Positions 12,199-38,260 of a DNA stretch of 64,000 bases are shown one piece after another. The notes beneath the pieces were generated by a model. It searched no databases. It worked only from the letters and a program-made list of their open reading frames with translations, and was not told the DNA's origin. This stretch comes from an uncultured Phycisphaerales bacterium (GTDB taxonomy: Bacteria > Planctomycetota > Phycisphaerae > Phycisphaerales > UBA1924). Positions within the stretch are counted from its first letter, which is position 1. Every line of letters begins with the position of its first letter. The stretch covers positions 44,504 to 108,503 of the forward strand of contig CALKVL010000017.1 of NCBI GenBank assembly GCA_937997415.1, in the 5' to 3' direction. A program made the position numbers and the translations under genes.

Positions 12199-12210
12199 GC
12201 ACGGAGGGTA

Positions 12211-12861: not shown

Positions 12862-12907
12862 GAGGGGCCTCCGAAACTGATTCGTTCGGAATCCGCCCGT
12901 CCCGGTT

Positions 12908-14215: not shown

Positions 14216-14250
14216 GCCAGAGTTTACCTTGTCTTCGAAGGTGGTGTGGG

Positions 14251-16600: not shown

Positions 16601-16690
16601 TACTGGATTTCCTGATCTGCAAGGAACGGCCCGGCGGGTATGCCGGGCCTTCTCTTTCATGGGGATTGAGATCGAGTACGATGGTGGTGC

Positions 16691-17008: not shown

Positions 17009-17011
17009 CAC

Positions 17012-17665: not shown

Positions 17666-17789
17666 GGTTCATCCTTGTGGCAACAGGGTCTACCCAGATT
17701 CCGACATGCCTGGACCAGCGCACCGGTTCTTTGGGACGAATGTACGGCCGAAGACCGGCTCGGACTTCAAGCTCGGACGCATAAAGCAT

Positions 17790-17818
17790 AACCGGCGCGA
17801 CGGTCGGTCGCGCCGGTT
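17790..17818 (-). terminator. Hairpin terminator downstream of rplT
   Basis: Perfect 12-bp stem AACCGGCGCGAC / GTCGCGCCGGTT with a 5-nt loop. On the minus strand it is followed by ATGCTTTAT, a weak T tract. Confidence 0.55.
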
Positions 17819-17841
17819 GATGAATCAGAATCAGAACATAC

Positions 17842-18216
17842 TCAGGCCTTGGCCGGAACGGCCTTGCTGGCCTTCACGCCGGTCGTCACGATCGTGTCGA
17901 AGAGTTTGGGGTCTTCGATGGCGATCTGGCTGAGCATCTTGCGGTTGAGCGTGATCCCGGCCAGTTTCAGTCCGTTCATGAACAGGCTGTAGCGGGTGCC
18001 GCGCATCCGGCACGCGGCGGTGATGCGTGTGATCCAGAGTTTCCGGTAATCGCGCTTCCGGCGGCGACGGTCCCGATAGCCATAGACGCCGGCGCGGACG
18101 ACGGCGTACTCGGCGCGGTACTTGCTCTTGTGATTGGACCCGAAATGGCCTCGGGCCTTGCGGAGAATTCTTTTACGGGCCTGGGCGCGGGCTGCGCCTT
18201 TACGTACGCGGGGCAT
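17842..18216 (-). CDS. rplT: 50S ribosomal protein L20
   Basis: MPRVRKGAARAQARKRILRKARGHFG...YRDRRRRKRDYRKLWITRI is the canonical L20 sequence. Confidence 0.95.
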   Translation of the reverse strand: MPRVRKGAARAQARKRILRKARGHFGSNHKSKYRAEYAVVRAGVYGYRDRRRRKRDYRKLWITRITAACRMRGTRYSLFMNGLKLAGITLNRKMLSQIAIEDPKLFDTIVTTGVKASKAVPAKA

Positions 18217-18298
18217 GGTTCAAACTCCTGGCTGATCCGTACGGGGTGTCGGTACGTGACCGACCGCTTGGGTCCCGGCGGATGAAAGGTACTGTTGA

Positions 18299-18655
18299 CT
18301 ACTTGACTGGCTTGAGAGCGAGGTGCTTCTTCGCCCAAGGGGTGCGCTTCTTCGCGGCGGGTTTCGTGGCCTCGACGGCCTTGGCTGCTGCTGCGGCCTT
18401 TCGCTGCTCGGGCGAAGGACTCTTTCGGAGAGCCGTGCGGGGCTGCTCCCGGCCTCGCAGGCGGCGGAAAAGCAGTTTCTCGAGCCGTTTGGCATCGGCC
18501 GATGCCATGAACGGATCGTTGCGGTACTGACGCAGTTTCTTGCCACCTTTTCCTGAGCGCAAGTGCTTGTGGCTGGAAGAGCGGTGCCGGATCTTGCCGG
18601 TCTTGGAGATTCGGACCCGCTTGAGAAGGCCCTTGTGTGGCTTGGACTTAGGCAT
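18299..18655 (-). CDS. rpmI: 50S ribosomal protein L35 with Lys/Ala-rich C-terminal extension
   Basis: MPKSKPHKGLLKRVRISKTGKIRHRSSSHKHL is the L35 core. It lies immediately upstream of rplT. GGAG lies 6 nt before the ATG. Confidence 0.9.
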   Translation of the reverse strand: MPKSKPHKGLLKRVRISKTGKIRHRSSSHKHLRSGKGGKKLRQYRNDPFMASADAKRLEKLLFRRLRGREQPRTALRKSPSPEQRKAAAAAKAVEATKPAAKKRTPWAKKHLALKPVK

Positions 18656-18766
18656 GACAAACTCCGTACAGGCACCGACCCGTTGATTCGGGCTGGGCCA
18701 AAATGATAGGCGGGCAGGATGGTCGGCGGCAAGGCACTGGTTTGGCCGAAATCGTCGCGGTGAACT

Positions 18767-20389
18767 TCACGCACCATGAGGCAGGGCCGACGGGAGCGGA
18801 GTTTGGTTCACGGGAGCAGCCGACGGCATCGAGTCGATCGCGTCCGCCAGTGACTTTCCCTCGGCCGCTCGGCGGCGTGCCTCGTTGAACTGCCGCAGGA
18901 GCCTTGAAGCAGCGCAGTCGGGTGGGGCCTGGTCTTGGGTGGCGGCGGCATCTTCGGCGACAAGGAGAATGTCCTCGAGTGCGATGCGCTCCGGGGGGCG
19001 TGCGAGGGTGTACGAGCCTTCCTGCTCTTCATCACTGACCCGGCGGATAAGCCCCGCCTTGGCCAGACGTTCCAGCATCAGACTGACCGTGTGATCATCG
19101 ATTCCGGTGGACTTTGCGGCGTGCGCGTGATCTGTTGAATCACCCCTCGCGAAGCGCTCGGCGACAACAGCCATGACCCGAACCAACGCGGTGGAGTCGA
19201 GGAGTCGAAGCGGAGCCGCCGCGACCTTGCGTGCCATCAGGCCGAGGGTTTCGAGGACAGAATCAGAGTATCCTGCCGCGGTGGCGACTCTGTATGTCTG
19301 GATCGAGTGTGCGAGTTGAAGGCCGAAGAGCACGATCATCCACGTGACGTAGACCCAGAGAAAGAAGAGCGGGAGGAGGGCGAGGGTGCCGTAGAACTGC
19401 GAGTAGCCCGTTGAAAACTTCACGTACGTCGTAAATCCCCACTTGCCGGCCTCCCAGAGGGTTGCACCGACAATGGCACCGATGAACGCCGGGCCGACGA
19501 ACACCCGCGTGTTGGGAACCGTCGCGTAGACGCCGAGAAGCAGTATGGTGCTGATCGTCACGGACACCGCGAATCCGGCGGCGGTCACGAGTGTCTGCGA
19601 CAGCCGGGAGCGGGGGCGAGGAGCGGGGGTGATCGGGGAGTTGGTGTTCGACGGGTTTGCTTCGCCCGCTGCCGGAGAATGCACTTCGGCGGGCGTCGGA
19701 GGCTCTTCCGACGGCTGTGCACTGCTCCGAGCATCTTCACTCGGGGATGCGGCATCATCACGTTCAATGAACGCGATGATCGAGGATTCCGGCAAGGTCT
19801 CGACCCACCGCATGACACGTTCGGTCACACCGAAACTCGCGAAGAGGAAAATCGGTCCGAGAGTCAGCAAGGCCCAGTACTGCGGGATGCGACGCTTCCA
19901 ACTCCGTCCCGTGGGCGAGTGGTAGATGTCGTTGAAAGCGTTCTCAATCTCGACAAGCATGGAGAGCGCGGCGTAGATGAGAGTGAGAATTCCGACAAAC
20001 CCGATGGTCCTAAACGGGAGTTTGTGGATGCCCTCGACGAGGCTGGATATCCAGGAATCGAGGTGTGTTGCTTCCCCCGCCACAAGGGGGATCGCCGGAT
20101 CGATGGGCGGCTGGCTGACGACGATGTTCGAAAGCCCCGCGAACTTGAGCATGGACGAAACGGCTGTGCCGACCATCTCCTTGGACGAAAAAGCGCCCAG
20201 CACGACCAGGCCGATCACCAGCACGGGGATGAGGCTGAAGATGGTGCGGTAGGTCAGCGCCGCGGCCATGCGGGTCAACTGCGATCGCCGGATACCGAGG
20301 ATGCACAGGTGCCCCATGTGGAGGAGTTGCCTGATGGGGGCGGGCCGTGGCAGGCTTGAGGGCGGGTTGTCGTAACGATCGTGCTTCAT
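18767..20389 (-). CDS. YihY/BrkB (virulence factor BrkB) family membrane protein with C-terminal winged-helix-like domain
   Basis: LTRMAAALTYRTIFSLIPVLVIGL, multiple TM segments and YGTLALLPLFFLWVYVTWMIVLFG match the YihY family. The C-terminal IDDHTVSLMLERLAKAGLIRRV looks like a wHTH. Confidence 0.85.
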   Translation of the reverse strand: MKHDRYDNPPSSLPRPAPIRQLLHMGHLCILGIRRSQLTRMAAALTYRTIFSLIPVLVIGLVVLGAFSSKEMVGTAVSSMLKFAGLSNIVVSQPPIDPAIPLVAGEATHLDSWISSLVEGIHKLPFRTIGFVGILTLIYAALSMLVEIENAFNDIYHSPTGRSWKRRIPQYWALLTLGPIFLFASFGVTERVMRWVETLPESSIIAFIERDDAASPSEDARSSAQPSEEPPTPAEVHSPAAGEANPSNTNSPITPAPRPRSRLSQTLVTAAGFAVSVTISTILLLGVYATVPNTRVFVGPAFIGAIVGATLWEAGKWGFTTYVKFSTGYSQFYGTLALLPLFFLWVYVTWMIVLFGLQLAHSIQTYRVATAAGYSDSVLETLGLMARKVAAAPLRLLDSTALVRVMAVVAERFARGDSTDHAHAAKSTGIDDHTVSLMLERLAKAGLIRRVSDEEQEGSYTLARPPERIALEDILLVAEDAAATQDQAPPDCAASRLLRQFNEARRRAAEGKSLADAIDSMPSAAPVNQTPLPSALPHGA

Positions 20390-22696: not shown

Positions 22697-25600
22697 TCAG
22701 CGACGGTTCAGTACACGGTCAAGGAGACTGACAGCGTTCTGACGGCCGAGGAAGAAGTTGGAGCGGGTGATGGAGTCGAACGAACCGGAGAGGGTTCGAG
22801 ATGTGTTGAGGATGGTGTAGGAGCGGTCGGAGCCGGGTTGGTTGTTGACCGAATCGGCCGCGAAAGGATCGAACAGGGTCGCTGCGCCGTTGTCCGCGGT
22901 GATGCGCAAGCCCATGAGCTCTCCCACGCGGCGTGAAACCGCGCCGGTCAGGGCCTGTGCGATGGTGTCCAGCCCCGCCACATCCGGGACGATGCCCTTG
23001 ACCGCGAAGGACGGGAGGAACACGACCGCGTCGTCTTCGAGGTCGGTGTTGAAGGGATCTGAACGCTGTGAGAAGCCGAAGGGCTGGGTGTTGAAGAATC
23101 CGGTCTGGAGGAAGTTGAAGTTGAAGGCGTTCCCGAACGCGTCGAAGAGCGGCAGGAGCGGGTCGGTGGTGGTGGAGAGATACACGGTGGAGAACGGCTC
23201 GAACTCAAAGTCCGCGGGGTTGGTTGAGAAGCGAACATCAAAGCCCGAACCCGCGACGGAACCCTGGAAGAGCGCGTTGAGCTGGTTGACAAGGTTTGTC
23301 AAGACGTAGTCGTTGACTGGCAGCCCGTTGACCGAACCGCCGGTGAAGCCCAGGGCTCGGAGATCGAACGATTGGATATTGGTGGTGAATCCGCCCGCCT
23401 GGAGCCAATCCACGCTGCCGCCGTTGGTCTCGATGAGCACATTCTGTGTGCGTCGCGTGATGGTGCCGGTGCCGGCGGTGATAACCTCGAGTTGGTAGTC
23501 TGTGTTGAAGGCGCCCTGCAGCATGACCGCGAAGGTGCCGTTCGCGCCCGGCGACCCGGCACGCTCGGGGACGATGAAGTCGATGTAGAAATCGCCCTGG
23601 GCGTCGAAGCCGTAACGGGTCTCGCCGTTGTCGGCGATGACCTTGTTGGGTGTGCCGGCATACGGCAGGAAGTCTGTTGGGCTGAAGACGAGCGAGGCGT
23701 CGTCGATCAGGGTGCCTCCGGTGGTGTCGAACAGAGCGAACTGGACCACGCCGCGGTTGTCCTGGAAGTCGGTCGGCGAAGCGCTGCCCAGGTCGGCGCC
23801 GAAGTCGGCCAGTTTAACCGTGATCTTCATCCTGGTGCCTGCCGCGATGGGCTGGCGGTTGTTGAGATGGAAGACGTCCACATCACCCGTGACTAGGGCG
23901 TTGGGAACACCCGCGCTGCCGCGCGGGCCGATGGCGGCATTGACGGTGCTGGTCACCTTTCCGGAGGCGTCGCGGATGGTGGAGATGTTGGAGGCGTTGG
24001 TGCCCGAGACAATCCCGGATGCACGATCAAAGACGAACGTGTAGTCTCCGATGATGAGCGTCGAGATGTCGTCGGACGTTCCGAGCACGCCGTCGGCCCC
24101 TGCGAAACTGATCGGGTCGGGCGCATTCGCGACGAGTTGGCCGTCGCCCGAGTCGGTCGCGGAGTTGAAGCCCGAATCTCCGTCGTCGAAGAGCGTGATG
24201 GTGAAGTTGTAATCACCCAGCGTGTTGGGGAAGGTGTCCGGGTTGGGCGTTGTGGTCGGGCTGAAGACCCCCGACGTGTTGCCCACGACGATGTAGTACG
24301 TGCCGGTGGCCTGGATGAGATAACTCTGTGCGAAAGTCTGGTCGGTGGCGGTGCCCGCCGCGGCGGGGACGGAGACGGCCACCGCGTTGTCGGCAAACTG
24401 ACCGAACTGTCCGCCCGTGGCGGTAAAGACCGTGAGGCCGGCGTTGATCGCAGTGCCGCGGAGTCCTGAGAGTTGCAGGATCTGACCCGCCTGGAGGGTG
24501 ACGGCGTAGACGTCTGCATCGCCCGCGAAACGGAAGAAGTTGTTGTCGTTGTCGGGGTGATCGCCGATGAAGCCGCGCACGGTGTAGGGGATGTTGGGGT
24601 CGGGCAGGTTGTTCGCCGTGGCGTTGCGGTCCATGACGAAGTTGAGGTTCGTCGCGCCGTACATATCCACGCGGAGCGGAGCACCGTTGGTGTTGACGAA
24701 GTTGATCGTCGGGTTGATCTTGTCGCCGGCATCGCCGACGATGCCGTCCCCGGAGAAGTTGTCGCCGGGTTCGGAGAAACCGTCGCCGTCGCCGTCGATG
24801 CCGATGCCGACGAGTTTGGCCTTGAAGATACTCTCGTCGATCTCAAACCTGTAGATTCCCGGCCCCGGAAGGGCCGGTGCGATGGGCAGGTTCCGCTCGG
24901 TGACTGACTTCGAGAAGACGACCTTGACGGTGTTGTTGGTGGCGTCGTAGGAGAGGGTGTAGTCGACACCCTGGATAAGACGGATGGTGATGTTGCCGTT
25001 GCCCCGCACCTCGGAGACGCTCAGCGAGGGGCTTATGGTGCTGAAGTCGATCGGCTGATTGAAGACCAGATTGGCGGTGAAGACGCGGGCATCGACCGAG
25101 AGTCGGATATCGCTGACCTGGGCCGAGATCGGGGCAAGTCTGGGAGCTTCGACCGCGAAGTTGCCCTGAGAGCCTGTGAACGTGCTCCCGCCGATTCGGA
25201 CCGGGCCGATGATGCCGTTGCTGGCGATGCGGTAGTTCTCGGTGGAGCGTGTGGAGCCGACCCCCGTGCCGTTGATAGTCACGGCGCCGATGGAACCAAG
25301 GCCCGCGGCGACATTGTCATCGTTGGTGCCGAAGAAGCCATCATTGCCCCGGGCGTAGCCGGCGGTGATGTCGGACTCGCGGAAGTTGCCGCTGACGGTG
25401 ACGTTGCCGATGGTGCCGCTGCTGAGGGTGTCCGCAGCGGAGCCGGTGCCTCCGAAGAAGGCATCGGTGCCCAGGTCCATCCCGGAGACGAGGGCCGAGT
25501 CGAAGAAGTCGCCGTTGATGGTGACGTTGCCGATGGAATCGCCGGCGCTGAAAATGGTCTGGCTGACGGCGGGAGCGGTGATGGCCCCGACGCTGTTGCC

Positions 25601-28600
25601 GAAGCGGAAGAGTGAACGCTGGACTGGGCCGCCCAGCGTCAAGGACAGGGAGTCCCTCGCCACGCTGACATCGCCGCGGGAAGCCCCGGTGATGGTGATG
25701 GCTCCGCTCTGGAGCAGCGAGATGCTCGCCTCGCCGCGGATGGTGGAGTTCGCGGCCCCGAAATCACCGTTGATGGCGAGCGTGCCGACGGAACGGGCGG
25801 AGAAGAAGCCGCCGCTGAGGCCGGCGATCGTGGCGGTCGTGATGTCCCCGCCGATGGCGATCGTGCCCGAGCCATCGATCTTCCCCGAAACGATTGAAGT
25901 GACGTTTCCGTCGATGGTGATGTCGCTGTCGCCGGTGACGGAGCCAACCAGGGTCAACACTCCGAGGGCCGCATCATCGGCACCGAAGATATCGAAGTTA
26001 TTGAGGATCCCGTTGGACGACGAGACGGTGAGGTTGCTTGTCGCCGTGGTGTTTCGGAGTTGAAGCGTGAGCGAGCCGGGGCTGAAGATCGCCGTGCCGG
26101 TGGTGAGCGTGATGGAGTAGGTCACGCCGCCGACCGTGAAGGTGCGAGCCCCTGTGAAGGACACCGCATCCGGAGGGGGCGTTGAGGAACCAAAGTCCAC
26201 ATCCGGGTTGGTGTTGGGGAGGTCTGTTCCGCCCCGGATGAGCCTGGCGTCGTTGGCGACCGCGGGCGAGAGGGTGTCGCCGAAGGCGCTGGTGTTCGTG
26301 ACCGTGCCGCCCAGCGTGAGCGCTGTAATGGTCGAGAAGCCGAAAGCGGAGCGATCGTCGGCGGTGTTGTAGATGCCGTCGGCACCCGGGTCGATTCCAG
26401 CGGAGAAGGAGGAGTCCCGCGTTCCGCCCGTGATGCTGATGGTGCCGATGCTGCCCGACCCGATGGTGTCGGCGTTGGAACCGGTGCCGCCGATGCGGTT
26501 GTCTGCTCCGAGGCCGCGTACTCCTGAGACAAAGGCCGTGTTCGACACCCGGCCTGTGACCGCGATGGAGGTGATGGAGTCTCCCGCGGCGAAGAAACTG
26601 CCGATGCCGGTGGTGAGATCGTCGTTGCTGACGGAACCGTTGACCGTGATGGCGGTGATCGCACGCTGGGCGTACACGGACGCCTCGAAGACTGAACCGT
26701 TGACCACCTCGAATCGGGCGAGGTTCCTGCCGGCGGTGATGCGCGGACCCTGAATCCCCGCACCCTGGGCAACGCCCGGCGGGAGCTGGTTCCGGTTGGC
26801 ATCGACGGCGACAGCGGCGGAGCGGGCGGGGTTGATGCCCACATCACCGAAGACGCTGCCCGGTGCGCTCGCCACGCGAAGCAGCGTGACGTCGAAATCG
26901 GCGTGGATATCGCCGTACAGATTGCCGTTGGTGATGACCACGCTGGCGAGCGACCCGTCGTACGACGCGATCATGTTGCCCGGGAGGAACGAGCCGTTGT
27001 TGATCGCGACGGAGGCGATGCCGCCGCTGTAACTGACGACGCTGCCGTTGAAATCGCCGTTGGAGATGACGGAGTTGATCCGACCGAAGGCGATCACCGA
27101 TCCGCGGCCGAGGAGGTTGGCATCGGGCTTGGCGCTGACGCCGCCGATGGTGACGACACCGGTGATGTTCCCGCCGACGCGGAGGTCGTTGAAGAGTTGA
27201 CCGGCCGGCGCTCCGGCGCTGGCGAGATCGCCTCGCACGAGGATGACTCCGGCCTCGCCCGCGCGACCGATGTTGCGTCCCGCGTTGAGGGCGGTGATGC
27301 CGCCGGAGAGATCGGTGCGGATGGCCAGATCCCGCGATGCGGAGAGGGTGCCGACGTTGCCCCGGCTGCCGGTGGTGGTGATGCTGCCGGACAGATCGCC
27401 CGCCGTCGCCGAGACCGTGGTGATCGGCCCGCTGGCGGCGATATCACCGCTGATGCCGCGGGCGGAGACGGTGATGATTGCGCCGTCGGGTCCGGTGACC
27501 TCGATGCGGCTGTTGATGATCTCGTTGGTGGCGGTGAAACTGGTGATGACGCCGGAGACCAGGAATGTCGAGGCCGTGATATTGCGGCCCGCGCGGGTGG
27601 TCGTCAGTTGGCCGGTGGTGATCGCGCTGGCTCGGATGTCGTTGGTGGCCGAGAGCAGGATCAGTTCGTTCACGACGCCGATGGTGCTGCGTGTGATGTT
27701 GGTGGCGGTGATGCCTGTGCGGACACGCCCTGTAACGTTGATGAGCAGGTCGCTCATGTCGCCGTTGGTGGCGGCGATGCGGCCCACATCGAGGGCGCAG
27801 ATGATCTCGCTGGGGCGGAGTTCATCGAGGCTGCCCGTGAGCGTGGAGTTGCGGAAGCCCGCGGCGAGGATGTCGCCCACCCGGCCCGTGGTTCGGAGGC
27901 GCGACGCGTCCCAGAAGCCGCCGGTGAGCGTGAAGTTACCGAAGTTGTTGGTCGAGATCTCGCTGTTGTAGAAGGTGGAGTTGTTGAGCGTGATGCCCGC
28001 GATGTCGCCGAGTTGGACGTTGTCGTCACCATAGAAGAAACTGGGCCAGAAACCGTCGAGGGTCTGGGTGCCGAAGTACGCGCCACGGACCTGGGCATTG
28101 GTGAAACTGATGGAGTTGATGCCGTCGGCGACGGTGAGGAGCGGCTCCGGGACCGAGTTGCTGGCGCTGATGGCGCCTTCGATCAGGATCGGGCCGGGGC
28201 GTGAACTGTTCACGCTGAGGAGGTTGTTGATGGCGAAGATGCCTCCCGAGGCGATGGGGTTGGGCCCGCGCGAAGCGATACCGTCACCCACATCGACGCC
28301 GGTGATATTAAAAGCGAAGATCGAACCGATGACGCCGTCGAAACCGCCTTGCGGGGTGATGCGGTCGCCGTTGGCTGTTGCCTGGGCGAGTTCCGCGGTC
28401 GCGCCTTGCAGGATGACGTCGCCAAGCGATCCTTCGGCACGAACGACCGCCACGTTGCCCGCTCGGATCACGACGCCGTTGAGATACGGCGAGAAGGGGG
28501 CGCCGATATCGTCGAGCGAAGCCTGGCCGCCCTGGAAGTTGTCGTCGTTGACCGCACGGATCAACTTCGAGGGGAGAAAATCATCGTCGAGCAGCGCGCC

Positions 28601-31600
28601 ACCGGGGATGCCGAGCGTCCCGCCGACCTCGCCGACGAGGCCGATGCTGTAGCCCATGAACGGCCCGATGAGGGTGGGGCCGTAGTCGGGCAGTTGGGAG
28701 CGACCGAGATTTCCACGCACGCTCAGGCGACCCAGGCCCGCGACATCCACGGCGATGATGTCGCCGTTGGGCGAGTTGTTCTCGATGAAGGCCAGGCCGC
28801 CGCCTTGCGTGTCCGCGCCGCCGAACTGGCCGCGGGTGACGCGCTCCTCGATGCGCCACACGTCGATCTCGGAAGAGCCGCCGATGGCGATGCTTGACGC
28901 CCCGTCGCCGGTCACCAGGATGTGGCCGATACCGATGGCGGCGGTGGGGGAGGTCGTGACGCTGGTGATGCTCAGCGTGCGGCCGCCGACGAGGTTGGCG
29001 ATAATCTGACCGATCACCACGCCCTGCGACCCGTTCACCGGGAGGGCACGGACAAGGCCGACCTGCTGGTTGGGCGGAGCGTTGGCGACACTGATCTGCA
29101 CACGGGCGCCTCCGTCATCGATCAGATTCAGCGTCTGGCCGCCGATGAGCGGGTACGTGATGTCCGCGGAGCCTGTCAACGAGAGCAGCGGCAGGTCGGC
29201 GAAACGGATGTCCGAACCCGAGCCGGTGTTCAGACGGATGCCCTGTGCCCCGAGGTAGACACCGGATCGCGGGTTGGCATCGTCGTAGGCGTCCTGGCTG
29301 ACCAGGATGGCGCCGATGCGTGAGTTGGGGCTGGTGGTGACAGTGAACGAATCGCCCGCGACGTGGAACCCGACTCGGATCATGCCGATGTCGCCCGGCC
29401 CGCCGCCGAGACCCGTGAACACGTTGAACGAGTTGACGCTCAGCAGAGCGCGGGGGTCTGGTTCGTCCTGGTCCATTCCAACGCCGCCGCGGATATCGAG
29501 AAGACCGATACGGCCGTTGACGTTCAGGTCGAGGAAGTTGACATCGCCCTCGCTGGGTCGGTCGCCGCCGGGGACGGCGGACATTCCTGTATACAGCGAA
29601 CCGAGATCTCCGCCGATGGTGACGTTGATCCGCGGGTTGCCCGTGACGGCGTTTGGTCCGATGTCGGAGCCGGTGATGATGTTGAAGAGGCTTCCGGCGA
29701 CGCTCACGCTGCCGCCCTGCCAACTCATCGCGTCGTCGTCGCTGAGAACGGTGTTCGAGAGTTCAACCGGGGACGTTTCCGCTCCGCCGCCGTTCATGAA
29801 GCCGGTGCCGATGCGCAGCGAGCCGACATTGCCCGAGAGGACCGAGATGCTGCTGCCTTCGCCGCTGGCCTGGTCGGTGAAGCCGTTGCCGCCCGCGGTG
29901 CGGAAGGCTCCCAGCGTCGCGGGGGCCATGCCGGTGATGGTTACCGAGTACGGGAGAACTCCCGAACCGGTATCGTTGCTGTTGGGGTCGGTGATAACCA
30001 GGTAATAGACGCCGGGTGCATCGGCCTTCCAGGTGAGGTTGGTCGCGACGAACCGACCCTCGCGGAACTGGCTCGGGGGCGCTGCGAGCGTTCGGCCGTC
30101 CTGGTCCATGATGCGGAAGTAGGGAGAGAGTGTGGCACTGCTGATCGTGGCCTGGATGTTGATCGTCGCGCCTTTGTCGGCGGCGAAGGCGAAGACGTCC
30201 GCGGCGTCTTCGCCCAGGAAAGGATCTCGCCCGGAGATGTCGCCCACGATGCGTGCGGCCGTGCCCGCGTTGCCGATGAACTCGGCGGCGAGGATGGAGT
30301 CGTTGCGGAGGAAACTGGAGCCCAGAACGATGGATTGCTGCCCTGCCCGCAGGAGCGAAGTGGACGCCGTGTAGTTGTCCGGCGTGTTGAGCATGAGTTG
30401 GCGGACAGCCTCGGCGCGGGTGGTGCCCGGGTCCACGCCGATATACGCCTCGAGTTCGTTGTAGGTGTAAATGTCTCGGGAGGGACGGTTTTGCGGATCG
30501 AAGGTATCGCCGACGATGGTCACATCGAGTTGGCTGCGGGCGCCGATAAGGATCTGCCCGGCGGTCCTGCCGACGATCACCTGTCCGTTGGTCTTGTTGT
30601 TGGGATCGACCGTGCGGCCGTCGGAAAAGCGGAAATCGGTGTCGGGGGACCAGATGCCCGCATCGCCTCCGACCACCAATGAGCCCAGGTCGCCGTCAAC
30701 CGTGATGGAGCCCATGAGCACGCCGATGGCGATCTTGTCCACGAACCCGGAGAAGTACGATGATCCGTGGACCAGTCCGTGGATGGTGATGCTGCCCATC
30801 GAACTGCCGTCTTCCAGGAAGATGCCCTGGTTCGGACGGTTGAACCCAGTGGTGACGTAATCAATGACGTCGAACGGGTTGGGTGTCGAGAGGTCGGGCA
30901 TGAGGCCGCCCGGGTTGGCCCCTCCCTGGGTCACGTTGTTGCGGATGAAAGGTGACCCGATGATGATCGAGGCCGGCCCGGGCGGGAGGCCCGCGAAGTC
31001 GAACTGATCCTGCTGCAGGTCCACGGCGTAGGCGAACCCCACATCTTCCATCTCGTCGAGAAGGCCGATCGGATTGGCCTCGAGCGTGAAGACATATGGC
31101 GCCTGGTACTCGATGCGAGGGATGAGCGTGAAGGGATCGAAGCCGTCCGGCGCCGTGGTGCTCGTGGTGATCTTGCCGCCCCACATCTGGAAGGATGTGC
31201 GCGAGTCCGTTCCGCTGAATCGGATGGAGCCGATGCCGTCGTTGTAATCGGGGATGCCATCCGCGTTGATGTCGCCGGGGTTGAACTCGGTGCCGGGCGG
31301 CGGGATCGTCGCCAGGGTTTGGCGCATGTCGCGGCCGTAGAGGTCGCGGAAGTTGACCGTTGCACCGACGGGACCCGTCAGGACCGCGATGAAACCGTAC
31401 TGCCCCAGGTCGTTGAGGAGGGCGGCATAGTCCGAGGAAGGAAGTGTGAAGGAGACATCATCGATTCGGAAAGCCGGGTTGATCCCCGACCCGGCATTGA
31501 CGGCCTGGGTCAGTTCCAGACGGAGCGTGTCGAACCCTCCGACGTTCGCGGGAAGCGTCAGCGTGCCGGTGCCCAGGTTGGCGTTGCCGCCGGCGAAGAG

Positions 31601-32251
31601 CGCCCGCAGGGCCGCGCCGGTGAAGGACTGCGTCACGACGTTGTTGTAGAGAAGTGAAAGACGCGTCTGGTCCGTCAGGATGCCGGTGTTGTCGGTGCCG
31701 CCGTCGGCGGTGACAAGGAACGAAGCACCGATCGCCGCGAGTTGGAACTGCGGGTTGGCCCCGTCATCCCAGAAACGGAACTGCACAAACTCGGTTCGTT
31801 CATCGAGCGAGACGCGGAGATAACGCTGCTGGTTGTCCTGTACCTGGGGCTGGGCCGTGATGCGGATATCCCCGGCGGGGTTGATGTTGTGCTGAATTTG
31901 GAGCCCAGATTCGGGGGCGATACCTCCGCTGCCCACGATGCCGTAGCCCAACTGGTCGAAGCTCTCGGTCTTGGAAGTGGGATCGGTGGGGGTGATGTCG
32001 ACGTTGCTGGCGATGTACGGCAGGTAGTACCCGGCGTACCCGACGACGGTGCCCAGGCCGGTGTTCGGATCGACGTTGTCGGCGGTGACGGTCAGCGAGA
32101 AGAGCATCTGCCGGCGTTCGAGCTGCTCGATGTTCGGGCGCTCCGTTGAACCGGCGAGCATCGCCAGTCGAGACGGGCCATCTCCACCCTCTCCGCACAG
32201 GCGCTGACGCTGACGGACGTATGGGCGGTTCACCTTCTTCTTGCGATGCAT
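22697..32251 (-). CDS. Giant secreted/surface repeat protein (about 3184 aa): basic N-terminus + LExRxLLS-type motif, PPC-like domains, long beta-helix-like repeat region
   Basis: ATG at 32251 is preceded by AGGAG (5-nt spacer). N-terminus: MHRKKKVNRPYVRQRQR...IEQLERRQMLFS. The Gly/Thr/Ser/Asn/Asp-rich repeats contain almost no Cys. All overlapping plus-strand ORFs are antisense artefacts. Confidence 0.85.
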   Translation of the reverse strand: MHRKKKVNRPYVRQRQRLCGEGGDGPSRLAMLAGSTERPNIEQLERRQMLFSLTVTADNVDPNTGLGTVVGYAGYYLPYIASNVDITPTDPTSKTESFDQLGYGIVGSGGIAPESGLQIQHNINPAGDIRITAQPQVQDNQQRYLRVSLDERTEFVQFRFWDDGANPQFQLAAIGASFLVTADGGTDNTGILTDQTRLSLLYNNVVTQSFTGAALRALFAGGNANLGTGTLTLPANVGGFDTLRLELTQAVNAGSGINPAFRIDDVSFTLPSSDYAALLNDLGQYGFIAVLTGPVGATVNFRDLYGRDMRQTLATIPPPGTEFNPGDINADGIPDYNDGIGSIRFSGTDSRTSFQMWGGKITTSTTAPDGFDPFTLIPRIEYQAPYVFTLEANPIGLLDEMEDVGFAYAVDLQQDQFDFAGLPPGPASIIIGSPFIRNNVTQGGANPGGLMPDLSTPNPFDVIDYVTTGFNRPNQGIFLEDGSSMGSITIHGLVHGSSYFSGFVDKIAIGVLMGSITVDGDLGSLVVGGDAGIWSPDTDFRFSDGRTVDPNNKTNGQVIVGRTAGQILIGARSQLDVTIVGDTFDPQNRPSRDIYTYNELEAYIGVDPGTTRAEAVRQLMLNTPDNYTASTSLLRAGQQSIVLGSSFLRNDSILAAEFIGNAGTAARIVGDISGRDPFLGEDAADVFAFAADKGATINIQATISSATLSPYFRIMDQDGRTLAAPPSQFREGRFVATNLTWKADAPGVYYLVITDPNSNDTGSGVLPYSVTITGMAPATLGAFRTAGGNGFTDQASGEGSSISVLSGNVGSLRIGTGFMNGGGAETSPVELSNTVLSDDDAMSWQGGSVSVAGSLFNIITGSDIGPNAVTGNPRINVTIGGDLGSLYTGMSAVPGGDRPSEGDVNFLDLNVNGRIGLLDIRGGVGMDQDEPDPRALLSVNSFNVFTGLGGGPGDIGMIRVGFHVAGDSFTVTTSPNSRIGAILVSQDAYDDANPRSGVYLGAQGIRLNTGSGSDIRFADLPLLSLTGSADITYPLIGGQTLNLIDDGGARVQISVANAPPNQQVGLVRALPVNGSQGVVIGQIIANLVGGRTLSITSVTTSPTAAIGIGHILVTGDGASSIAIGGSSEIDVWRIEERVTRGQFGGADTQGGGLAFIENNSPNGDIIAVDVAGLGRLSVRGNLGRSQLPDYGPTLIGPFMGYSIGLVGEVGGTLGIPGGALLDDDFLPSKLIRAVNDDNFQGGQASLDDIGAPFSPYLNGVVIRAGNVAVVRAEGSLGDVILQGATAELAQATANGDRITPQGGFDGVIGSIFAFNITGVDVGDGIASRGPNPIASGGIFAINNLLSVNSSRPGPILIEGAISASNSVPEPLLTVADGINSISFTNAQVRGAYFGTQTLDGFWPSFFYGDDNVQLGDIAGITLNNSTFYNSEISTNNFGNFTLTGGFWDASRLRTTGRVGDILAAGFRNSTLTGSLDELRPSEIICALDVGRIAATNGDMSDLLINVTGRVRTGITATNITRSTIGVVNELILLSATNDIRASAITTGQLTTTRAGRNITASTFLVSGVITSFTATNEIINSRIEVTGPDGAIITVSARGISGDIAASGPITTVSATAGDLSGSITTTGSRGNVGTLSASRDLAIRTDLSGGITALNAGRNIGRAGEAGVILVRGDLASAGAPAGQLFNDLRVGGNITGVVTIGGVSAKPDANLLGRGSVIAFGRINSVISNGDFNGSVVSYSGGIASVAINNGSFLPGNMIASYDGSLASVVITNGNLYGDIHADFDVTLLRVASAPGSVFGDVGINPARSAAVAVDANRNQLPPGVAQGAGIQGPRITAGRNLARFEVVNGSVFEASVYAQRAITAITVNGSVSNDDLTTGIGSFFAAGDSITSIAVTGRVSNTAFVSGVRGLGADNRIGGTGSNADTIGSGSIGTISITGGTRDSSFSAGIDPGADGIYNTADDRSAFGFSTITALTLGGTVTNTSAFGDTLSPAVANDARLIRGGTDLPNTNPDVDFGSSTPPPDAVSFTGARTFTVGGVTYSITLTTGTAIFSPGSLTLQLRNTTATSNLTVSSSNGILNNFDIFGADDAALGVLTLVGSVTGDSDITIDGNVTSIVSGKIDGSGTIAIGGDITTATIAGLSGGFFSARSVGTLAINGDFGAANSTIRGEASISLLQSGAITITGASRGDVSVARDSLSLTLGGPVQRSLFRFGNSVGAITAPAVSQTIFSAGDSIGNVTINGDFFDSALVSGMDLGTDAFFGGTGSAADTLSSGTIGNVTVSGNFRESDITAGYARGNDGFFGTNDDNVAAGLGSIGAVTINGTGVGSTRSTENYRIASNGIIGPVRIGGSTFTGSQGNFAVEAPRLAPISAQVSDIRLSVDARVFTANLVFNQPIDFSTISPSLSVSEVRGNGNITIRLIQGVDYTLSYDATNNTVKVVFSKSVTERNLPIAPALPGPGIYRFEIDESIFKAKLVGIGIDGDGDGFSEPGDNFSGDGIVGDAGDKINPTINFVNTNGAPLRVDMYGATNLNFVMDRNATANNLPDPNIPYTVRGFIGDHPDNDNNFFRFAGDADVYAVTLQAGQILQLSGLRGTAINAGLTVFTATGGQFGQFADNAVAVSVPAAAGTATDQTFAQSYLIQATGTYYIVVGNTSGVFSPTTTPNPDTFPNTLGDYNFTITLFDDGDSGFNSATDSGDGQLVANAPDPISFAGADGVLGTSDDISTLIIGDYTFVFDRASGIVSGTNASNISTIRDASGKVTSTVNAAIGPRGSAGVPNALVTGDVDVFHLNNRQPIAAGTRMKITVKLADFGADLGSASPTDFQDNRGVVQFALFDTTGGTLIDDASLVFSPTDFLPYAGTPNKVIADNGETRYGFDAQGDFYIDFIVPERAGSPGANGTFAVMLQGAFNTDYQLEVITAGTGTITRRTQNVLIETNGGSVDWLQAGGFTTNIQSFDLRALGFTGGSVNGLPVNDYVLTNLVNQLNALFQGSVAGSGFDVRFSTNPADFEFEPFSTVYLSTTTDPLLPLFDAFGNAFNFNFLQTGFFNTQPFGFSQRSDPFNTDLEDDAVVFLPSFAVKGIVPDVAGLDTIAQALTGAVSRRVGELMGLRITADNGAATLFDPFAADSVNNQPGSDRSYTILNTSRTLSGSFDSITRSNFFLGRQNAVSLLDRVLNRR

Positions 32252-32660
32252 ATCTGCTCCTGAGCACCCAACGGACTGTCCCCCCGGACATCCTTCTTGA
32301 ATATCAACTTCACTCACGACCGCGCGGCCGTCCTATGGCAGCACCGATCGCCGTCGCCAACTGACTGAACGACGAGGGCGCAACGTCCCCTCGTCATACA
32401 CCGAACAATATGTAGCCGTACGCAGGGTCACTTCATCAGTTTCATGGTACCAGCCTCAACCGGCCCCGAATGTAGGACCGTACTCGTACAGGGACCAAAT
32501 ACGGGTTCTGCTGCCAATAAACCAGATCAAAGCCCAGTTGGTGCGTTGTTTTGGTGCCCGTCTGGTATTGCCTGTCTCTGTTCAACTCGGCAGTACTCAT
32601 ATCCTTTTCTACAGGCTGATCTGCTGATGAGATGTAAGTCTCTCTCTACTGTTCTATCTT

Positions 32661-33908: not shown

Positions 33909-36900
33909 TTACGTCGCGAGTGCCGGGAGTGCGGGGACGGTCGCCTCTACGCGGCGTGACTTGGCACCCGCGACGAGGATGTAGATCGAGGGAACAATCA
34001 GAAGCGTGAAGATCGTAGAAATCGCCATACCGCTGACGAGAACGATGCCGATGCTGTTGCGTGCCATCGCCCCCGCGCCCGTGACAAGAACCAGCGGGAA
34101 GTGACCGAAGACGGTGGCCACGCTCGTCATAAGGATGGGCCGCAGGCGGGTCATGGCCGCCTCGCGGACGGCGTCTCGCTTGGAGAGGCCGCTTTCCTGC
34201 AGGTGATTCGCGAACTCCACGATCAGGATGCCGTTCTTGGCCACCAATCCAACGAGGGTGATGAGACCGACCTGAGAGTAAATGTTGATGGTGGTCCAGC
34301 CGAGGAAGGTAAAGACGAGCGCGCCGCTGATGGCCAGTGGCACCGAACCAAGCAGCACGATCAACGGGTCTCGGAAACTGCTGAACTGTGCCGCCAGAAC
34401 GAGGTAGATCAGACCCAGCGCGAAGCCCAGGGTGACCGCCAGGCTTGCCCCTTCCATTCGGAGCTGGCGGCTCTCACCCGCGAAGTCGATGGCGTAGCCG
34501 GGCGGGAGCACCGCCCGTGCCGCGGCTTCGAGCGCATCAAGGGCCTCTGCCTTGGTCACACCCGGTGCCACGCCGCCGTAGATCTTGACGCTGTTGCGTT
34601 GCTGGAAACGATTGAGTGTGCGCGGTGCGGCGATCGTTTCCAGACGCACAAAACTGCCCACGCTCACCAGGCCGCCGTCACGGGCCCGCACTTTCATCTG
34701 AAGGATCTGGTCGGGGGTGGCGCGGCCCGCCTCTTCGATCTGCGGGATGACCTTGTAACTGCGTCCGTCGTAGTTGAAGCGGTTGACGTACCCGCCCGAG
34801 AGCATGATCGAGAGATCTCTGCCGACCGAGGCGAGGTCCAGTCCCATGTCGGCGACTTTTTCACGGTCGATGATGATCCGCGTCTGGGGCAGGTCGATTT
34901 TGAGATCGGTGTCGGCGAACATGAACTTGCCGGTGCCGAAGGCCGCGCCGACCAGGCCGCCTGCCACCTGGGCCATTTCTTCCGGCGAGTCCTGGCTGGT
35001 GATGAGGAGTTCGACATCGAACTGCCCCGCGCCGGGCAGTGGTGGAGGCAGCACGGGGAAGGCCGTGACACCGGCGATCACACTGACCATGCCGTAGGCC
35101 TGCGGCTGGATGTCCTTCGTGGTCCGCTCGCGCTCCTTCCACTTCTTCAGATTGACGCCGCCGAAGCCCGAGGACGGTGACATCAGAACACGCCAACTGA
35201 ACTCCGCTTCCGGCAAGTCCATCAGGGTCGTGGAGACGGCCGTCGCGGCCTGTTTGGTCGCCTCCAGCGAGGAATCCGGCGATCCGGACAGGACGAAGAA
35301 GATGCCGCCCTCATCCTCCGTCGGGGCTAGTTCCTTGCCGGACATCGAGTACAAGGGGACCGCGGCCAAGGCGATCAGCACCGCCGCGAAAGCCATCGAC
35401 CAGCGCAGATCGAGCGTCACGCCGAGCACCCGACCGTACAGGCGACGCACTCTGTCAAAGCCCCTGTTGACCAGCCGCGTGAGCACCCCCTCTCGCCCGT
35501 GAGCGGGGACCAGTCGAGAACTCATCATGGGTGAGAGTGTCAGCGCCACAATACCCGAAACGACTACCGCCGCGGCGAGCGTGAAGGCGAACTCCTTGAA
35601 CAGAACCCCCGTCAGGCCTGTCTGGAAGCCGATGGGCGCGTAGACCGCGGCGAGCGTGATGGTCATGGAGATGACCGGTGAGGCCAGTTCGCGCGCGCCC
35701 AGAAGGGCCGCATCGATGCGGCTTCGGCCTTCTCGCACGTGCCGCTCGACATTCTCGACCATGACGATGGCATCGTCGACGACCAGGCCAACGCAGAGCA
35801 CCAGCGCGAGGATGGTGAGCAGGTTCAGGCTGAACCCGAAAACGGACATGAAGATGCACGCGCCCGCGATGGAGATGGGGATCGCCACCAGCGGCACCAG
35901 GACGGTGCGGATGGAGCCCATGAAGAGAAAGACGACGATCGCGACGATGGCGATGGTCTCGGCGAGGGTGGTGCCGATGGCCTTGAGGGCGTTGTCCATG
36001 TAGAACGTGCCGTCGTACGCCAGCTGCATTTCGATGCTTGGCGGAAGACGAGGGCGCAGGCGTTCCATGGTTGCCCTGAGTCGCTTGGCCACCTCCAGTT
36101 CGTTCGAGCGGGGCAACGGCCAGACCGACAGGTACACCGCCGGCTCAGCGTTCAGCCCCGCTTCGGCGGTCGGTTCTTCACTGCCCAGTTCGACGCGGGC
36201 CACATCGCGCAGCCGCACGATGGTACCCTTTCGTTCGCGGACGATGAGCTGCTCGAACTCGTGCGGTGATCGCAGGTCGGTGTTGGTCAGGAGGTCGATC
36301 TGGACATCCCGGCTCTTGGTCCGGCCCACCGCGGCGAGGTAGTTGTTCCGGCGCAGCGAGTCGTAGACCTCGCCGGGGGTCACGTCGAGGGCCGTGAGGC
36401 GCGATTCGCTGAGCCAGATGCGCATCGCCAGGTAGCGGGGGCCTTCGATGCCGCAGCGCTGGACGCCCTCGATCGTGGAGAGTTCGGGCCTTACTTCCCG
36501 GTCGAGATACTCGGTGAGTCGGGAGAGGTCAAGTTCCTTGCTCGTGAAACTCAGGTAGAACGTGGCGAAGGGCCTGTCCGCGCGCTGGATGTCGATCACG
36601 GGGCTTTCGGCCTCGGGCGGGAGTTCGCTGCGGACCTGGTTGAGCCGGGCCCCGATCTCCGCGAGGGCGTCGTTGCTGTCGTGGTTGAGCCGAAGCCGTA
36701 CCGTGATCGTGCTCATGCCCGCGGCGCTTGAACTCTCGATGTAGTCGATCCCGTCGATCGCCGACACCGCCCGCTCGATCGGGGTCGTGATGAACCCTCG
36801 CACCGTTTCGGCGCTGGCCCCGATGTACATCGTCGTGATCACGACCGATGTGGACTCGATGCGCGGGTATTGGCGGATCGGCAAGTTGCTCGCCGCGCGC

Positions 36901-36980
36901 CACCCCACGGCGAGGATGATGAGGTTCAGAACGACCGCCAGCACGGGCCGATTGATGAAGATATCGGTGAAGGATCGCAT
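33909..36980 (-). CDS. RND efflux transporter permease (AcrB/HAE1-like)
   Basis: 1023 aa. FINRPVLAVVLNLIILAVG N-terminus, 12-TM RND architecture, and the family-typical VGLVVDDAIVMVEN motif. Confidence 0.95.
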   Translation of the reverse strand: MRSFTDIFINRPVLAVVLNLIILAVGWRAASNLPIRQYPRIESTSVVITTMYIGASAETVRGFITTPIERAVSAIDGIDYIESSSAAGMSTITVRLRLNHDSNDALAEIGARLNQVRSELPPEAESPVIDIQRADRPFATFYLSFTSKELDLSRLTEYLDREVRPELSTIEGVQRCGIEGPRYLAMRIWLSESRLTALDVTPGEVYDSLRRNNYLAAVGRTKSRDVQIDLLTNTDLRSPHEFEQLIVRERKGTIVRLRDVARVELGSEEPTAEAGLNAEPAVYLSVWPLPRSNELEVAKRLRATMERLRPRLPPSIEMQLAYDGTFYMDNALKAIGTTLAETIAIVAIVVFLFMGSIRTVLVPLVAIPISIAGACIFMSVFGFSLNLLTILALVLCVGLVVDDAIVMVENVERHVREGRSRIDAALLGARELASPVISMTITLAAVYAPIGFQTGLTGVLFKEFAFTLAAAVVVSGIVALTLSPMMSSRLVPAHGREGVLTRLVNRGFDRVRRLYGRVLGVTLDLRWSMAFAAVLIALAAVPLYSMSGKELAPTEDEGGIFFVLSGSPDSSLEATKQAATAVSTTLMDLPEAEFSWRVLMSPSSGFGGVNLKKWKERERTTKDIQPQAYGMVSVIAGVTAFPVLPPPLPGAGQFDVELLITSQDSPEEMAQVAGGLVGAAFGTGKFMFADTDLKIDLPQTRIIIDREKVADMGLDLASVGRDLSIMLSGGYVNRFNYDGRSYKVIPQIEEAGRATPDQILQMKVRARDGGLVSVGSFVRLETIAAPRTLNRFQQRNSVKIYGGVAPGVTKAEALDALEAAARAVLPPGYAIDFAGESRQLRMEGASLAVTLGFALGLIYLVLAAQFSSFRDPLIVLLGSVPLAISGALVFTFLGWTTINIYSQVGLITLVGLVAKNGILIVEFANHLQESGLSKRDAVREAAMTRLRPILMTSVATVFGHFPLVLVTGAGAMARNSIGIVLVSGMAISTIFTLLIVPSIYILVAGAKSRRVEATVPALPALAT

Positions 36981-37051: not shown

Positions 37052-38260
37052 TCAGTGCGGCTTTGATGAGGGGTGGGAGCCGCCCGAGGCCGTCGCCGGC
37101 GGTGCCTCGATCACGAGCGAACCTTCGCGTAGTTTGAAGGAGCCGGTCGCCGCGATGCGGTCGCCCGGCTTCACCCCTTCGAGCACGATCACATCGTTCT
37201 CAACCATGGGTCCGAGTTTCACGAAGCGCTGCGTGGCTCGCATCGTGTCGGGCTTATCGCCTGGGATGATCACAAAGACCTGATCCCCGTACGAGGTCCG
37301 CCGCACTGCGGTGGCGGGCACCACTGTGTAGGGCTTCTCCGGTTCGACCGGCACGCGGATCTGCACGAACATGCCGGGTCGCAGCCGGCCCTGGGGGTCG
37401 TGCACACTCGCACGCACCCGGACGTTCCGGGTGTCGTTGTTTACCGTTGCATCGACGGCAACGACCGTGATGATGATCGGTTCGGGTCCCATGACCGGGC
37501 ACGTTGCATCGACTTCCAGGCCGGGGGACACCCGTGCGAGATACTCCTGCGGGATGGCGAAGTCCAGGTGGGTTGTATCCTTGACCTCCTGTAGCATCAC
37601 GACCGCCGCCCCCTCGGCCAGGTACTGCCCCTCGTGAACGTTCTTCAACCCGACCCGGGCGCGGAAGGGGGCACGGATCGTGCGTTTGTCGAGGCGGGTC
37701 TGAACCTGGGCCACGCGGGCTTTCGCCTGCGAAACCTCCGCGTGCGTGCGTTCCAGATCCGCCTTGGCGCGGTCGACCTCGGCCTTCGCTCGGTCGTAAT
37801 CCATCGCCGAGGCCGCGCCGCGCTCTTTGGCGGTTGTCAGGCGGCCCAACTCTGACTCGGCCACCACGACGCGCGGCTGGGCCACCGTCACGTTCGTCTC
37901 GGCCACGCGGAGTGCGGCGTTGGCGGCATCCAGGTCCGCCCGATCCACGGCATCGTCCTGCATCAGGATGACCATACCCGGTTCAACGATCTGTCCCGAC
38001 TCGAAGGGCAGTTTGGTGATCACCCCGGCGAGTTCCGTGTTCACCATAATCGAGCGTTCGGCCAACACCGTCCCGACGAGGTCGGACATGGGCCTCCATA
38101 CCACTTGTCGCGCTTCGGCCAATCTCACCGCTTCGGCGGGCTCAAACGGCGGCGGGGGCGGTGCGTTGATCTGGCGGTATTTCCACCATGCCAACCCACC
38201 GCCGACGCACCCGAGTACCGTGAACATGAGAAAACCCGCCAACAAGGTCGAACGTTTCAC
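37052..38260 (-). CDS. RND efflux periplasmic adaptor (membrane fusion protein)
   Basis: The GTG start overlaps the tetR stop (GTGA) and has GAGAGGAG upstream. N-terminal TM segment, coiled-coil hairpin (AEVDRAKADLERTHAEVSQAKARVAQ) and beta-barrel C-terminus. Confidence 0.9.
   Translation of the reverse strand: MKRSTLLAGFLMFTVLGCVGGGLAWWKYRQINAPPPPPFEPAEAVRLAEARQVVWRPMSDLVGTVLAERSIMVNTELAGVITKLPFESGQIVEPGMVILMQDDAVDRADLDAANAALRVAETNVTVAQPRVVVAESELGRLTTAKERGAASAMDYDRAKAEVDRAKADLERTHAEVSQAKARVAQVQTRLDKRTIRAPFRARVGLKNVHEGQYLAEGAAVVMLQEVKDTTHLDFAIPQEYLARVSPGLEVDATCPVMGPEPIIITVVAVDATVNNDTRNVRVRASVHDPQGRLRPGMFVQIRVPVEPEKPYTVVPATAVRRTSYGDQVFVIIPGDKPDTMRATQRFVKLGPMVENDVIVLEGVKPGDRIAATGSFKLREGSLVIEAPPATASGGSHPSSKPH

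Follow-up and report, generated by a model that had tools for sequence, protein, structure and literature searches.

A variant of the planctomycete LEPR-type leader on a giant Phycisphaerales protein and its possible link to a cassette encoding a SecA-like ATPase and an M50-HlyD fusion

The export of giant planctomycete surface proteins that lack a signal peptide has been a standing question since 2004, when Studholme, Fuerst & Bateman (FEMS Microbiol Lett 236:333) proposed a conserved motif, RRLxxExLExRxLLA, as a putative new signal for export at the N-terminus. Databases represent this motif by the Pfam entry PF07595 ('Planctomycete extracellular', Planc_extracel) and the NCBIfam entry NF012209 ('LEPR-XLL' / 'LEPR-8K'), the former also being listed among signal-peptide models in another paper. 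In Tuwongella immobilis the motif is found on 52 proteins, among them 8 of the 10 longest; proteomics detected 20 of the 52, and 8 of the 52 were found solely in the fraction soluble in sodium dodecyl sulfate (SDS) (Seeger et al. 2021, PMC8567305). In the literature on this leader, we found no paper characterising its export route. A separate study has described a conserved locus that combines a secondary SecA_DEAD protein with HlyD, M50-like and GAF-HlyD proteins and that was reported in further phyla besides Planctomycetota, naming neither an ATP-binding cassette (ABC) transporter nor a substrate and making no mention of the N-terminal motif (Kamneva, Poudel & Ward 2015, PLoS One, PMC4452313). 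Here we describe what is very probably a variant of the LEPR-type leader on a protein of 3,184 residues, which is encoded in a 64,000-nucleotide stretch of DNA from an uncultured Phycisphaerales bacterium (assembly GCA_937997415.1, contig CALKVL010000017.1, positions 44,504 to 108,503 of the forward strand), referred to as the window, and we relate its distribution to that of the SecA_DEAD locus. Coordinates refer to the window unless a contig is named.

A conserved leader at the N-terminus of a giant protein

The features of the giant gene that are relevant for its leader are as follows, with pLDDT denoting the predicted local distance difference test score of a structural model.

22697 to 32251, (-) strand: giant gene, open reading frame (ORF) of 3,184 amino acids starting at ATG 32251-32249
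32257 to 32261, (-) strand: Shine-Dalgarno sequence AGGAG, with a 5-nt spacer to ATG 32251
32111 to 32251, (-) strand: leader, residues 1-47, conserved in sequence and predicted to be unstructured (pLDDT <50)
32201 to 32248, (-) strand: basic block, residues 2-17 (HRKKKVNRPYVRQRQR), with an NRPYVR-like core that recurs in orthologues
32150 to 32170, (-) strand: second leader block, residues 28-34 (RLAMLAG), with G34 invariant and L29 and A33 at least 90% conserved
32096 to 32131, (-) strand: core motif, residues 41-52 (IEQLERRQMLFS), very probably a variant of LEPR-XLL / Planc_extracel, with L44, E45, R47 and F51 invariant
31202 to 32104, (-) strand: first folded region, residues ~50-350, predicted beta-sandwich (mean pLDDT 80.5)

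The reading frame ending at 22697 offers two in-frame starts, GTG 32317 and ATG 32251. The choice of the latter in the initial annotation, made on account of its Shine-Dalgarno sequence, is borne out by the AGGAG located 5 nt upstream and by the invariance of M1 in two orthologue alignments of 23 and 58 sequences. Since M1 and leader positions upstream of the core are conserved among orthologues, we regard this start and the basic stretch that follows it as real. A start at M31, which would shorten the distance to the motif to its usual value, was ruled out by the conservation of the region preceding it. The encoded protein is acidic, with 299 Asp and Glu versus 177 Lys and Arg residues overall and 294 versus 165 beyond the basic N-terminus, and it contains two cysteines. 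Its full length matches no Pfam or NCBIfam domain above threshold, and the Pfam search detected neither a HemolysinCabind domain nor repeats-in-toxin (RTX) repeats. Within the first 30 residues, 9 Lys and Arg face 2 Asp and Glu, and the Arg/Lys block followed by LExRxxL(F/L)S, which had been described for nucleotides 32096-32122, is present in this form as LERRQMLFS (L44-S52, nt 32122-32096) and conserved in orthologues; residues 1-55 are identical to those given initially.

A database search with the first 500 residues identified 97 homologues, 96 of which span 3,113-3,344 residues, the remaining one being a partial entry. Named homologues belong to Phycisphaerales, Phycisphaeraceae or Planctomycetota metagenome bins. 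In 96 of the 97 proteins we find a LExR-type core at a median distance of 43 residues from the annotated start, and the median net charge of the orthologues upstream of LExR is +6. The homologues keep three leader blocks, an NRPYVR-type basic block, RLAxxAG and ExLExRQ[LM]LF[SAT], with a family consensus around the core of ERPxVEQLERRQ[LM]LF[SAT]LTVTADDVDPxTG. At an overall identity of 31-55%, M1, G34, L44, E45, R47 and F51 are invariant in both orthologue alignments, and a conservation of 90% or more is seen for L29, A33 and L50 in both and for R13 in the alignment of 58 orthologues.

The leader shares with PF07595 its N-terminal location, a preceding basic stretch, an ExLExRxxL core, the absence of a hydrophobic h-region and the general type of carrier, giant proteins with extracellular domains; the protein itself is large, of planctomycete origin and devoid of an h-region, as are PF07595 carriers. 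When aligned to this model, residues 41-50 within the first 100 amino acids cover model positions 7-16 with 11.6 bits, and IEQLERRQMLFS fits ExLExRxxL with the small residue shifted by one position (LLF-S). It differs from PF07595 in ending with LLF[SAT] instead of LL[AS], in the position of the core about 43 residues from the start, compared to an onset at residues 8-36 in other carriers of the source genome with unambiguous start codon, and in the addition of the two conserved upstream blocks NRPYVR and RLAxxAG. To the detriment of the assignment, the protein stays below the PF07595 cut-off of 25.5 bits, with 11.6 bits for its first 100 residues and 13.6 bits in a whole-genome scan, and NF012209 (cut-off 17 bits) does not match it even at E = 10. 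The PF07595 cut-off is passed by no protein of the source genome, that of NF012209 by five other proteins. A hidden Markov model derived from nine strict carriers also failed to retrieve the giant protein. In the reciprocal direction, we took the leader cores of 94 homologues, without the protein of the window, to construct a profile and applied it to all six-frame ORFs of the source genome. This profile assigns 22.0 bits to the giant protein, 9.2-14.8 bits to the next seven matches and 8.4 bits to the best decoy. The seven runners-up are canonical N-terminal carriers, three of them positive for NF012209, and the giant-family profile thus retrieves proteins recognised by that model, with which the leader shares its kind, whereas the giant protein remains unmatched by it. 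Since the profile ranks seven carriers above all decoys, we consider the leader as a lineage-specific variant of the known one, and its sequence makes membership in the LEPR-XLL/PF07595 type highly probable.

What is new is thus a conserved three-block variant leader on a Phycisphaerales family of about 3,200 residues, which is missed by current models, and it is this deeply conserved variant on a conserved family that the locus contributes. As a consequence of the gap in Pfam and NCBIfam, annotation pipelines label the 3,184-residue protein as a hypothetical protein without domains. The initial annotation had suspected an undescribed secretion or processing signal. With respect to function this view probably stands, as the leader is in all likelihood a tag for export or processing, whereas its novelty does not, in light of the description of the motif in 2004 and of its two database entries.

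In an AlphaFold2 model based on 23 orthologues, residues 1-47 have pLDDT values below 50 and a confident fold starts around residue 50. Invariant residues in a region of predicted disorder characterise the leader as a linear motif in this model. The first folded region bears a weak resemblance to carbohydrate-binding modules, with CBM86 (6sgf) matched at E = 1e-5 and a template modelling (TM) score of 0.58 normalised to target length.

The leader is very probably neither a signal peptide of the general secretory (Sec) nor of the twin-arginine translocation (Tat) pathway. As noted initially, a classical signal peptide is missing: the maximal Kyte-Doolittle value of a 12-residue window near the N-terminus amounts to 1.11, which corresponds to no hydrophobic h-region, and the sole uncharged stretch, QMLFSLTVTA, is predicted to form an edge strand of the first folded domain. 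Neither the Tat consensus S/T-R-R-x-F-L-K nor an h-region is found in residues 1-60. These properties bear on the possibility that the leader works as a signal peptide of an unconventional Sec or Tat type, with SecYEG or TatABC as its translocase and signal peptidase I as the cleaving enzyme, its association with a cassette being incidental. Such a signal would be in line with the basic n-region, with the small residue (S/A/T) conserved at the end of the motif and with the presence of a canonical SecA on contig C119 of the source genome. We nevertheless regard it as distinctly unlikely, since an h-region is absent from the giant protein and all other carriers by the Kyte-Doolittle scan, the only candidate segment is a strand of a folded domain in the model, several orthologues have proline in place of a possible VTA-D cut site, and the Tat motif is missing. 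An astacin-type neighbouring protein in the source genome carries an ordinary hydrophobic signal peptide and thus illustrates that normal signals are in use there.

Carriers of the motif in the source genome

In the source genome (4.24 Mb on 259 contigs, 64.8% GC; labelled G000), the strict pattern [LIVMF][ED]xLExRxx[LMF] is contained in 24 six-frame ORFs compared to 8 in reversed-sequence decoys. In 14 of the 24 ORFs, which comprise 380-3,496 residues, the motif is located less than 140 residues from the upstream stop, and the threefold excess over decoys is entirely N-terminal. No enrichment at N-termini is seen for looser patterns such as [LIVMF]ExRxx[LMFIV], which give 3.4-4.4 matches per 10,000 residues in every position bin up to residue 1,000 and 2.2 beyond. 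The expected genome-wide enrichment at N-termini is consequently found for the strict pattern and not for loose ones. A table of enrichment that considered the first start plus 80 residues under-counted carriers and was not used. The expression L-E-x-R-x-[LM]-[LF]-[SA], which had been suggested for searches, proved unsuitable: it yields 11 matches in the genome and misses the giant protein itself, because the small residue follows one position later (LLF-S vs LL-A).

The flat distribution of loose patterns and the weak match of the giant protein to curated models would both be expected if the motif were without function and owed its presence to chance or to the composition of a GC-rich genome. 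This explanation is refuted by the conservation data, with four invariant columns of the core across 58 orthologues at 31-55% overall identity, and is further contradicted by the N-terminal excess of the strict pattern and by the positive reciprocal profile test, leaving it with a vanishingly small probability.

An N-terminal screen of the source genome flagged 15 ORFs, two of which (on contigs C52 and C218) are probably chance matches, and we estimate the number of carriers at about 14, with five among the ten longest ORFs. Flagged ORFs hold ranks 3, 5, 6, 9, 10, 13 and 22 by length among 2,706 and have a median length of 1,178 residues, compared to 383 residues for all ORFs (Mann-Whitney p = 4e-7). 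No h-region was detected in motif carriers by a Kyte-Doolittle scan. Pfam domains found in carriers include subtilase with PPC and P-domains, CARDB, dockerin, Ig-like, VWA, Calx-beta, FG-GAP and cyclophilin. The carriers are thus large, with Pfam-recognised domains of mostly extracellular type, and the correlation of the motif with protein size and extracellular domains that had been anticipated is observed. The recurrence of the arrangement on many very large planctomycete extracellular proteins, which had initially been stated, agrees with these carriers and with the 8 of the 10 longest proteins in T. immobilis (PMC8567305).

Individual carriers deserve mention. A second giant protein of at least 3,495 residues, which is cut by the contig end (C175:1-10487, (-) strand), has a canonical LEALEQRQLLTA leader, followed by dockerin and Ig-like domains and a PAP2 phosphatase domain. 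On C128 (3505-8085, (-) strand), the leader of two tandem carriers of about 740 residues is directly followed by a cyclophilin-type peptidyl-prolyl isomerase domain; if leaders of this kind mediate export, the two proteins would be exported foldases. In addition, Illumina adapter remnants (…GTGCTCTTCCGATCT) persist in the assembly close to contig ends (within 60 nt), namely at 23 5' and 29 3' ends of its 259 contigs, including C57, C117, C167, C185, C207, C231 and C256. Translated, these remnants read LEFRRVLFRS and cause false motif-like matches.

SecA-like cassettes and their co-occurrence with leaders

Among three SecA_DEAD ORFs in the source genome, one frame of 1,377 residues (on C119) was taken as canonical SecA and two are short (C203:83648-85732 and C120:4079-6097). 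Both short proteins have retained three domains (DEAD, preprotein cross-linking and second P-loop), and the model of the C-terminal wing/scaffold finds no match in them at E values up to 0.001. Each is preceded by the gene of a fusion protein (735 or 791 residues), which combines a PqqD-like N-terminal domain, an M50 protease and a HlyD adaptor, and a gene encoding a HlyD protein, with a GAF domain in one of the two copies, is located ahead of each fusion gene. Both cassettes share the make-up of the locus described by Kamneva et al. 2015, with GAF-HlyD or HlyD, M50-like HlyD and short SecA_DEAD proteins and no ABC transporter, and the link to LEPR-type leaders comes from the comparative counts of the present analysis. 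The M50 part contains an intact HExxH motif and several transmembrane-like segments and is related to proteases of leaders of ribosomally synthesised and post-translationally modified peptides (RiPPs) of the daptide and YydH/LiaK kind. A model of the N-terminal domain of the fusion, based on 21 homologues, consists of three strands followed by three helices. Its best structural matches include leader-bound RiPP-recognition elements (RREs), namely TbiB1 (5v1v, TM 0.71 on target), lasso B1 (6jx3, TM 0.65), PqqD (5sxy, 0.61) and PbtF (8t19), at Foldseek E-values that are weak (0.01-0.07).

Two carriers (C203:64323-65894 and C203:66378-68075) are located about 11.5 kb from the cassette on C203. 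About 10 kb from the cassette on C120, an ORF of at least 1,094 residues (16718-19999, (+) strand) contains ART-PolyVal, LPD3 and PBECR1 domains and belongs to the kind of 'polyvalent proteins' found on phages and conjugative elements.

The relation between leaders and cassettes was examined in 201 genomes of the phylum with at least 90% completeness, where a genome was counted as LEPR-positive if it contained a match to NF012209 above cut-off (38 genomes) and where the fusion was found in 57. The resulting counts are as follows.

201 genomes: both 34, LEPR only 4, fusion only 23, neither 140 (Fisher p 6e-19)
30 families listed in both outputs: both 8, LEPR only 2, fusion only 1, neither 19 (Fisher p 6e-5)

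The fusion is thus present in 34 of 38 LEPR-positive compared to 23 of 163 LEPR-negative genomes, counts which, like the p-value for the 201 genomes, overstate independence and thereby lessen the weight of the association, since the sampled genomes are related. Within the GTDB family of the window, LEPR proteins above cut-off are found in all 11 fusion-positive genomes (from 9 genera) and in none of the 10 fusion-negative ones (from 9 genera). Leaders and cassettes also adjoin: in 10 genomes (G251, G415, G418, G402, G367, G271, G325, G252, G218 and G005), an LEPR ORF is located within 12 kb of a fusion gene, compared to a rough chance expectation of about one genome. In a relative from the same family (G007, C1:733001-753000, 3893-18947, (-) strand), the gene of an LEPR-leader protein appears to form an operon with those of GAF-HlyD, M50-HlyD and HlyD proteins that directly follow it on the same strand. 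The first ORF of this operon spans 3,184 residues and contains a canonical leader (…ESLEDRILLSG…) and RTX-like GGxGxD repeats. We conclude that leaders and cassettes co-occur and often adjoin.

For the giant family itself, a homologue is found in 26 of 121 genomes of the order, and all 26 contain the fusion. The association is closest for fusions of the C203 type, defined by a match of more than 480 bits, which are found in 22 genomes that all encode the giant protein, compared to 4 of the 99 others. In most complete relatives, the loci of the giant protein and the cassette are hundreds of kb apart. As evidence for adjacency, the sole genome with both on one contig (G012) was set aside as weak, with two unrelated genes in between; the two loci are convergent and the N-terminus of the giant protein runs off the contig.

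A trans-acting export route for the giant protein

The overall explanation that we favour, with moderate confidence, combines a LEPR-variant leader with a cassette acting on the giant protein in trans. In this mechanism, residues 1-47 would serve in the cytoplasm as an unstructured and positively charged linear recognition tag, whose LExRxLL core would be bound by the PqqD-like RRE domain of the M50 (HExxH)-HlyD fusion. The fusion might cooperate with the second HlyD adaptor (GAF-HlyD in one copy), the truncated SecA-like ATPase and a TolC-type outer-membrane duct. The ATPase, having kept its preprotein-binding domain, would drive transport through the HlyD/TolC conduit, and in this way the giant acidic protein would cross the envelope. 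The M50 domain would probably cut the leader near the LExR core, ahead of the fold that starts around residue 50, and it is this start of the fold that would place the cut at or before the end of the LExRQ core and not after LFS. The tag would have to work in trans because the cassettes are encoded away from the giant gene, and the cassettes on C203 and C120 could in this manner serve about 14 substrates. Judged from sequence, a recognition of the leader by the cassette with its SecA-like, RRE-M50 and HlyD components appears slightly favoured, and the export route connecting the two is put forward as a hypothesis with roughly even chances. The balance is equally even for the general proposal that LEPR-type leaders, including the Phycisphaerales variant, are address tags of an undescribed trans-envelope secretion system, consisting of truncated SecA, RRE-M50-HlyD, HlyD and TolC and exporting proteins that are among the largest in bacteria without ABC transporter or hydrophobic signal peptide, of which the C203-type paralogue would have co-evolved with the cysteine-poor giant protein.

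Several observations weigh against this route. The giant gene is not located beside a cassette but on a contig other than C203 and C120 and among unrelated neighbours; none of the at least 10 TolC-family genes in the source genome is found beside a cassette; and the cassette is without an identified inner-membrane channel. The modelled fold begins around residue 50, within the LFS end of the motif, which makes a signal-peptidase-like cut after the small residue unlikely. With respect to the counts, four LEPR-positive genomes of the phylum lack the fusion. In five genomes that were checked in this context (G313, G144, G303, G424 and G299), neither a daptide-type M50 protein nor a second full SecA_DEAD protein was detected; G303 contains one extra short SecA_DEAD fragment, and one LEPR match among the checked genomes is spurious. 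G313 and G144, which combine weak motif matches with one SecA and no daptide-type M50, may be real exceptions to the link. Conversely, 23 fusion-bearing genomes lack a match to NF012209, and in four of these (G187, G212, G259 and G302) PF07595-type matches are found. A scan of 301 phylum genomes with PF07595, where 28 candidates were scored per genome, gave three genomes above cut-off and is underpowered and unusable as a distribution.

By analogy to the retention module of LapA and its protease LapG, the leader might alternatively serve in retention or anchoring, whereby it would stay bound to the PqqD-like domain at the inner-membrane machine and tether the extruded protein until a cleavage by the M50 domain, possibly under control of the GAF domain, releases it. 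The two scenarios share the association with the cassette and are not separated by sequence data. A sensory GAF domain on one adaptor and the eight Tuwongella carriers found solely in the SDS-soluble envelope fraction (PMC8567305) would suit a tether, whereas binding of an N-terminal tag in the cytoplasm would agree at least equally well with an initiation of transport, and we consider retention as rather unlikely.

The proposed export route resembles type I secretion of giant adhesins (HlyB-HlyD-TolC; LapB-LapC-LapE, LapA/LapG) in its giant, acidic surface proteins lacking signal peptides, its HlyD-type adaptors, its TolC-type duct and the proteolytic processing near the N-terminus that we propose here. 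It would differ by the lack of an ABC transporter, by the use of a SecA paralogue as motor, by a signal that is N-terminal instead of C-terminal and by a giant substrate without RTX repeats. Similarly, RiPP leaders that engage PqqD-like RREs and daptide/YydH-type M50 proteases share the short conserved linear motif in an unstructured leader and a partner with an RRE-like fold and a HExxH intramembrane protease. In the present case, the 'core peptide' would be a protein of 300 to more than 3,400 residues, substrates are mostly unlinked to the cassette and modifying enzymes are missing. These differences also concern the possibility that the leader directs a post-translational modification or maturation instead of secretion. 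The homology of its partner to daptide and YydH/LiaK leader proteases and the RRE-like domain are in line with such a role, which becomes very improbable in view of the size and the extracellular domains of the substrates, which are not short peptides, and of the make-up of the cassettes, in which HlyD adaptors and a SecA-like motor are present and modifying enzymes are absent.

If true, the link between leader and cassette would define a new secretion route and provide a simple sequence rule to predict the surface proteome of Planctomycetota and of other phyla that contain the cassette (Kamneva et al. 2015).

At the opposite end of the giant protein, the C-terminal ~250 residues (22697-23500, (-) strand) are among the best conserved parts of the family and have no Pfam match, with conserved segments of the form …QNVFIETxGG…DWLEAGG…RRVGELMGLR…FFLGxQN…SLLD. 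This region could be a second element for sorting, anchoring or assembly.

The neighbours of the giant gene in the window are pheA, an AcrB pump, a coiled-coil protein and a pseudouridine synthase. As partners of the leader, pheA, AcrB, a 217-residue M50-like ORF and a BrkB/Rrf2 gene were considered and found no support. The M50-type ORF, a stand-alone protease about 5 kb downstream of the giant gene (17012-17665, (-) strand), lacks both a PqqD and a HlyD part, and nothing was found to connect it to the leader. The full-length AcrB-type RND pump (33909-36980, (-) strand, 847 bits), whose gene precedes pheA and the gene of the giant protein, has no relation to the SecA-like cassette; the adjoining ORF (37052-38260, (-) strand) may be its adaptor. 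Further downstream of the giant gene, an ORF of 379 residues (14508-15647, (-) strand) carries a prepilin-type N-terminal methylation motif and belongs to an expanded class of planctomycete pseudopilin-like proteins.

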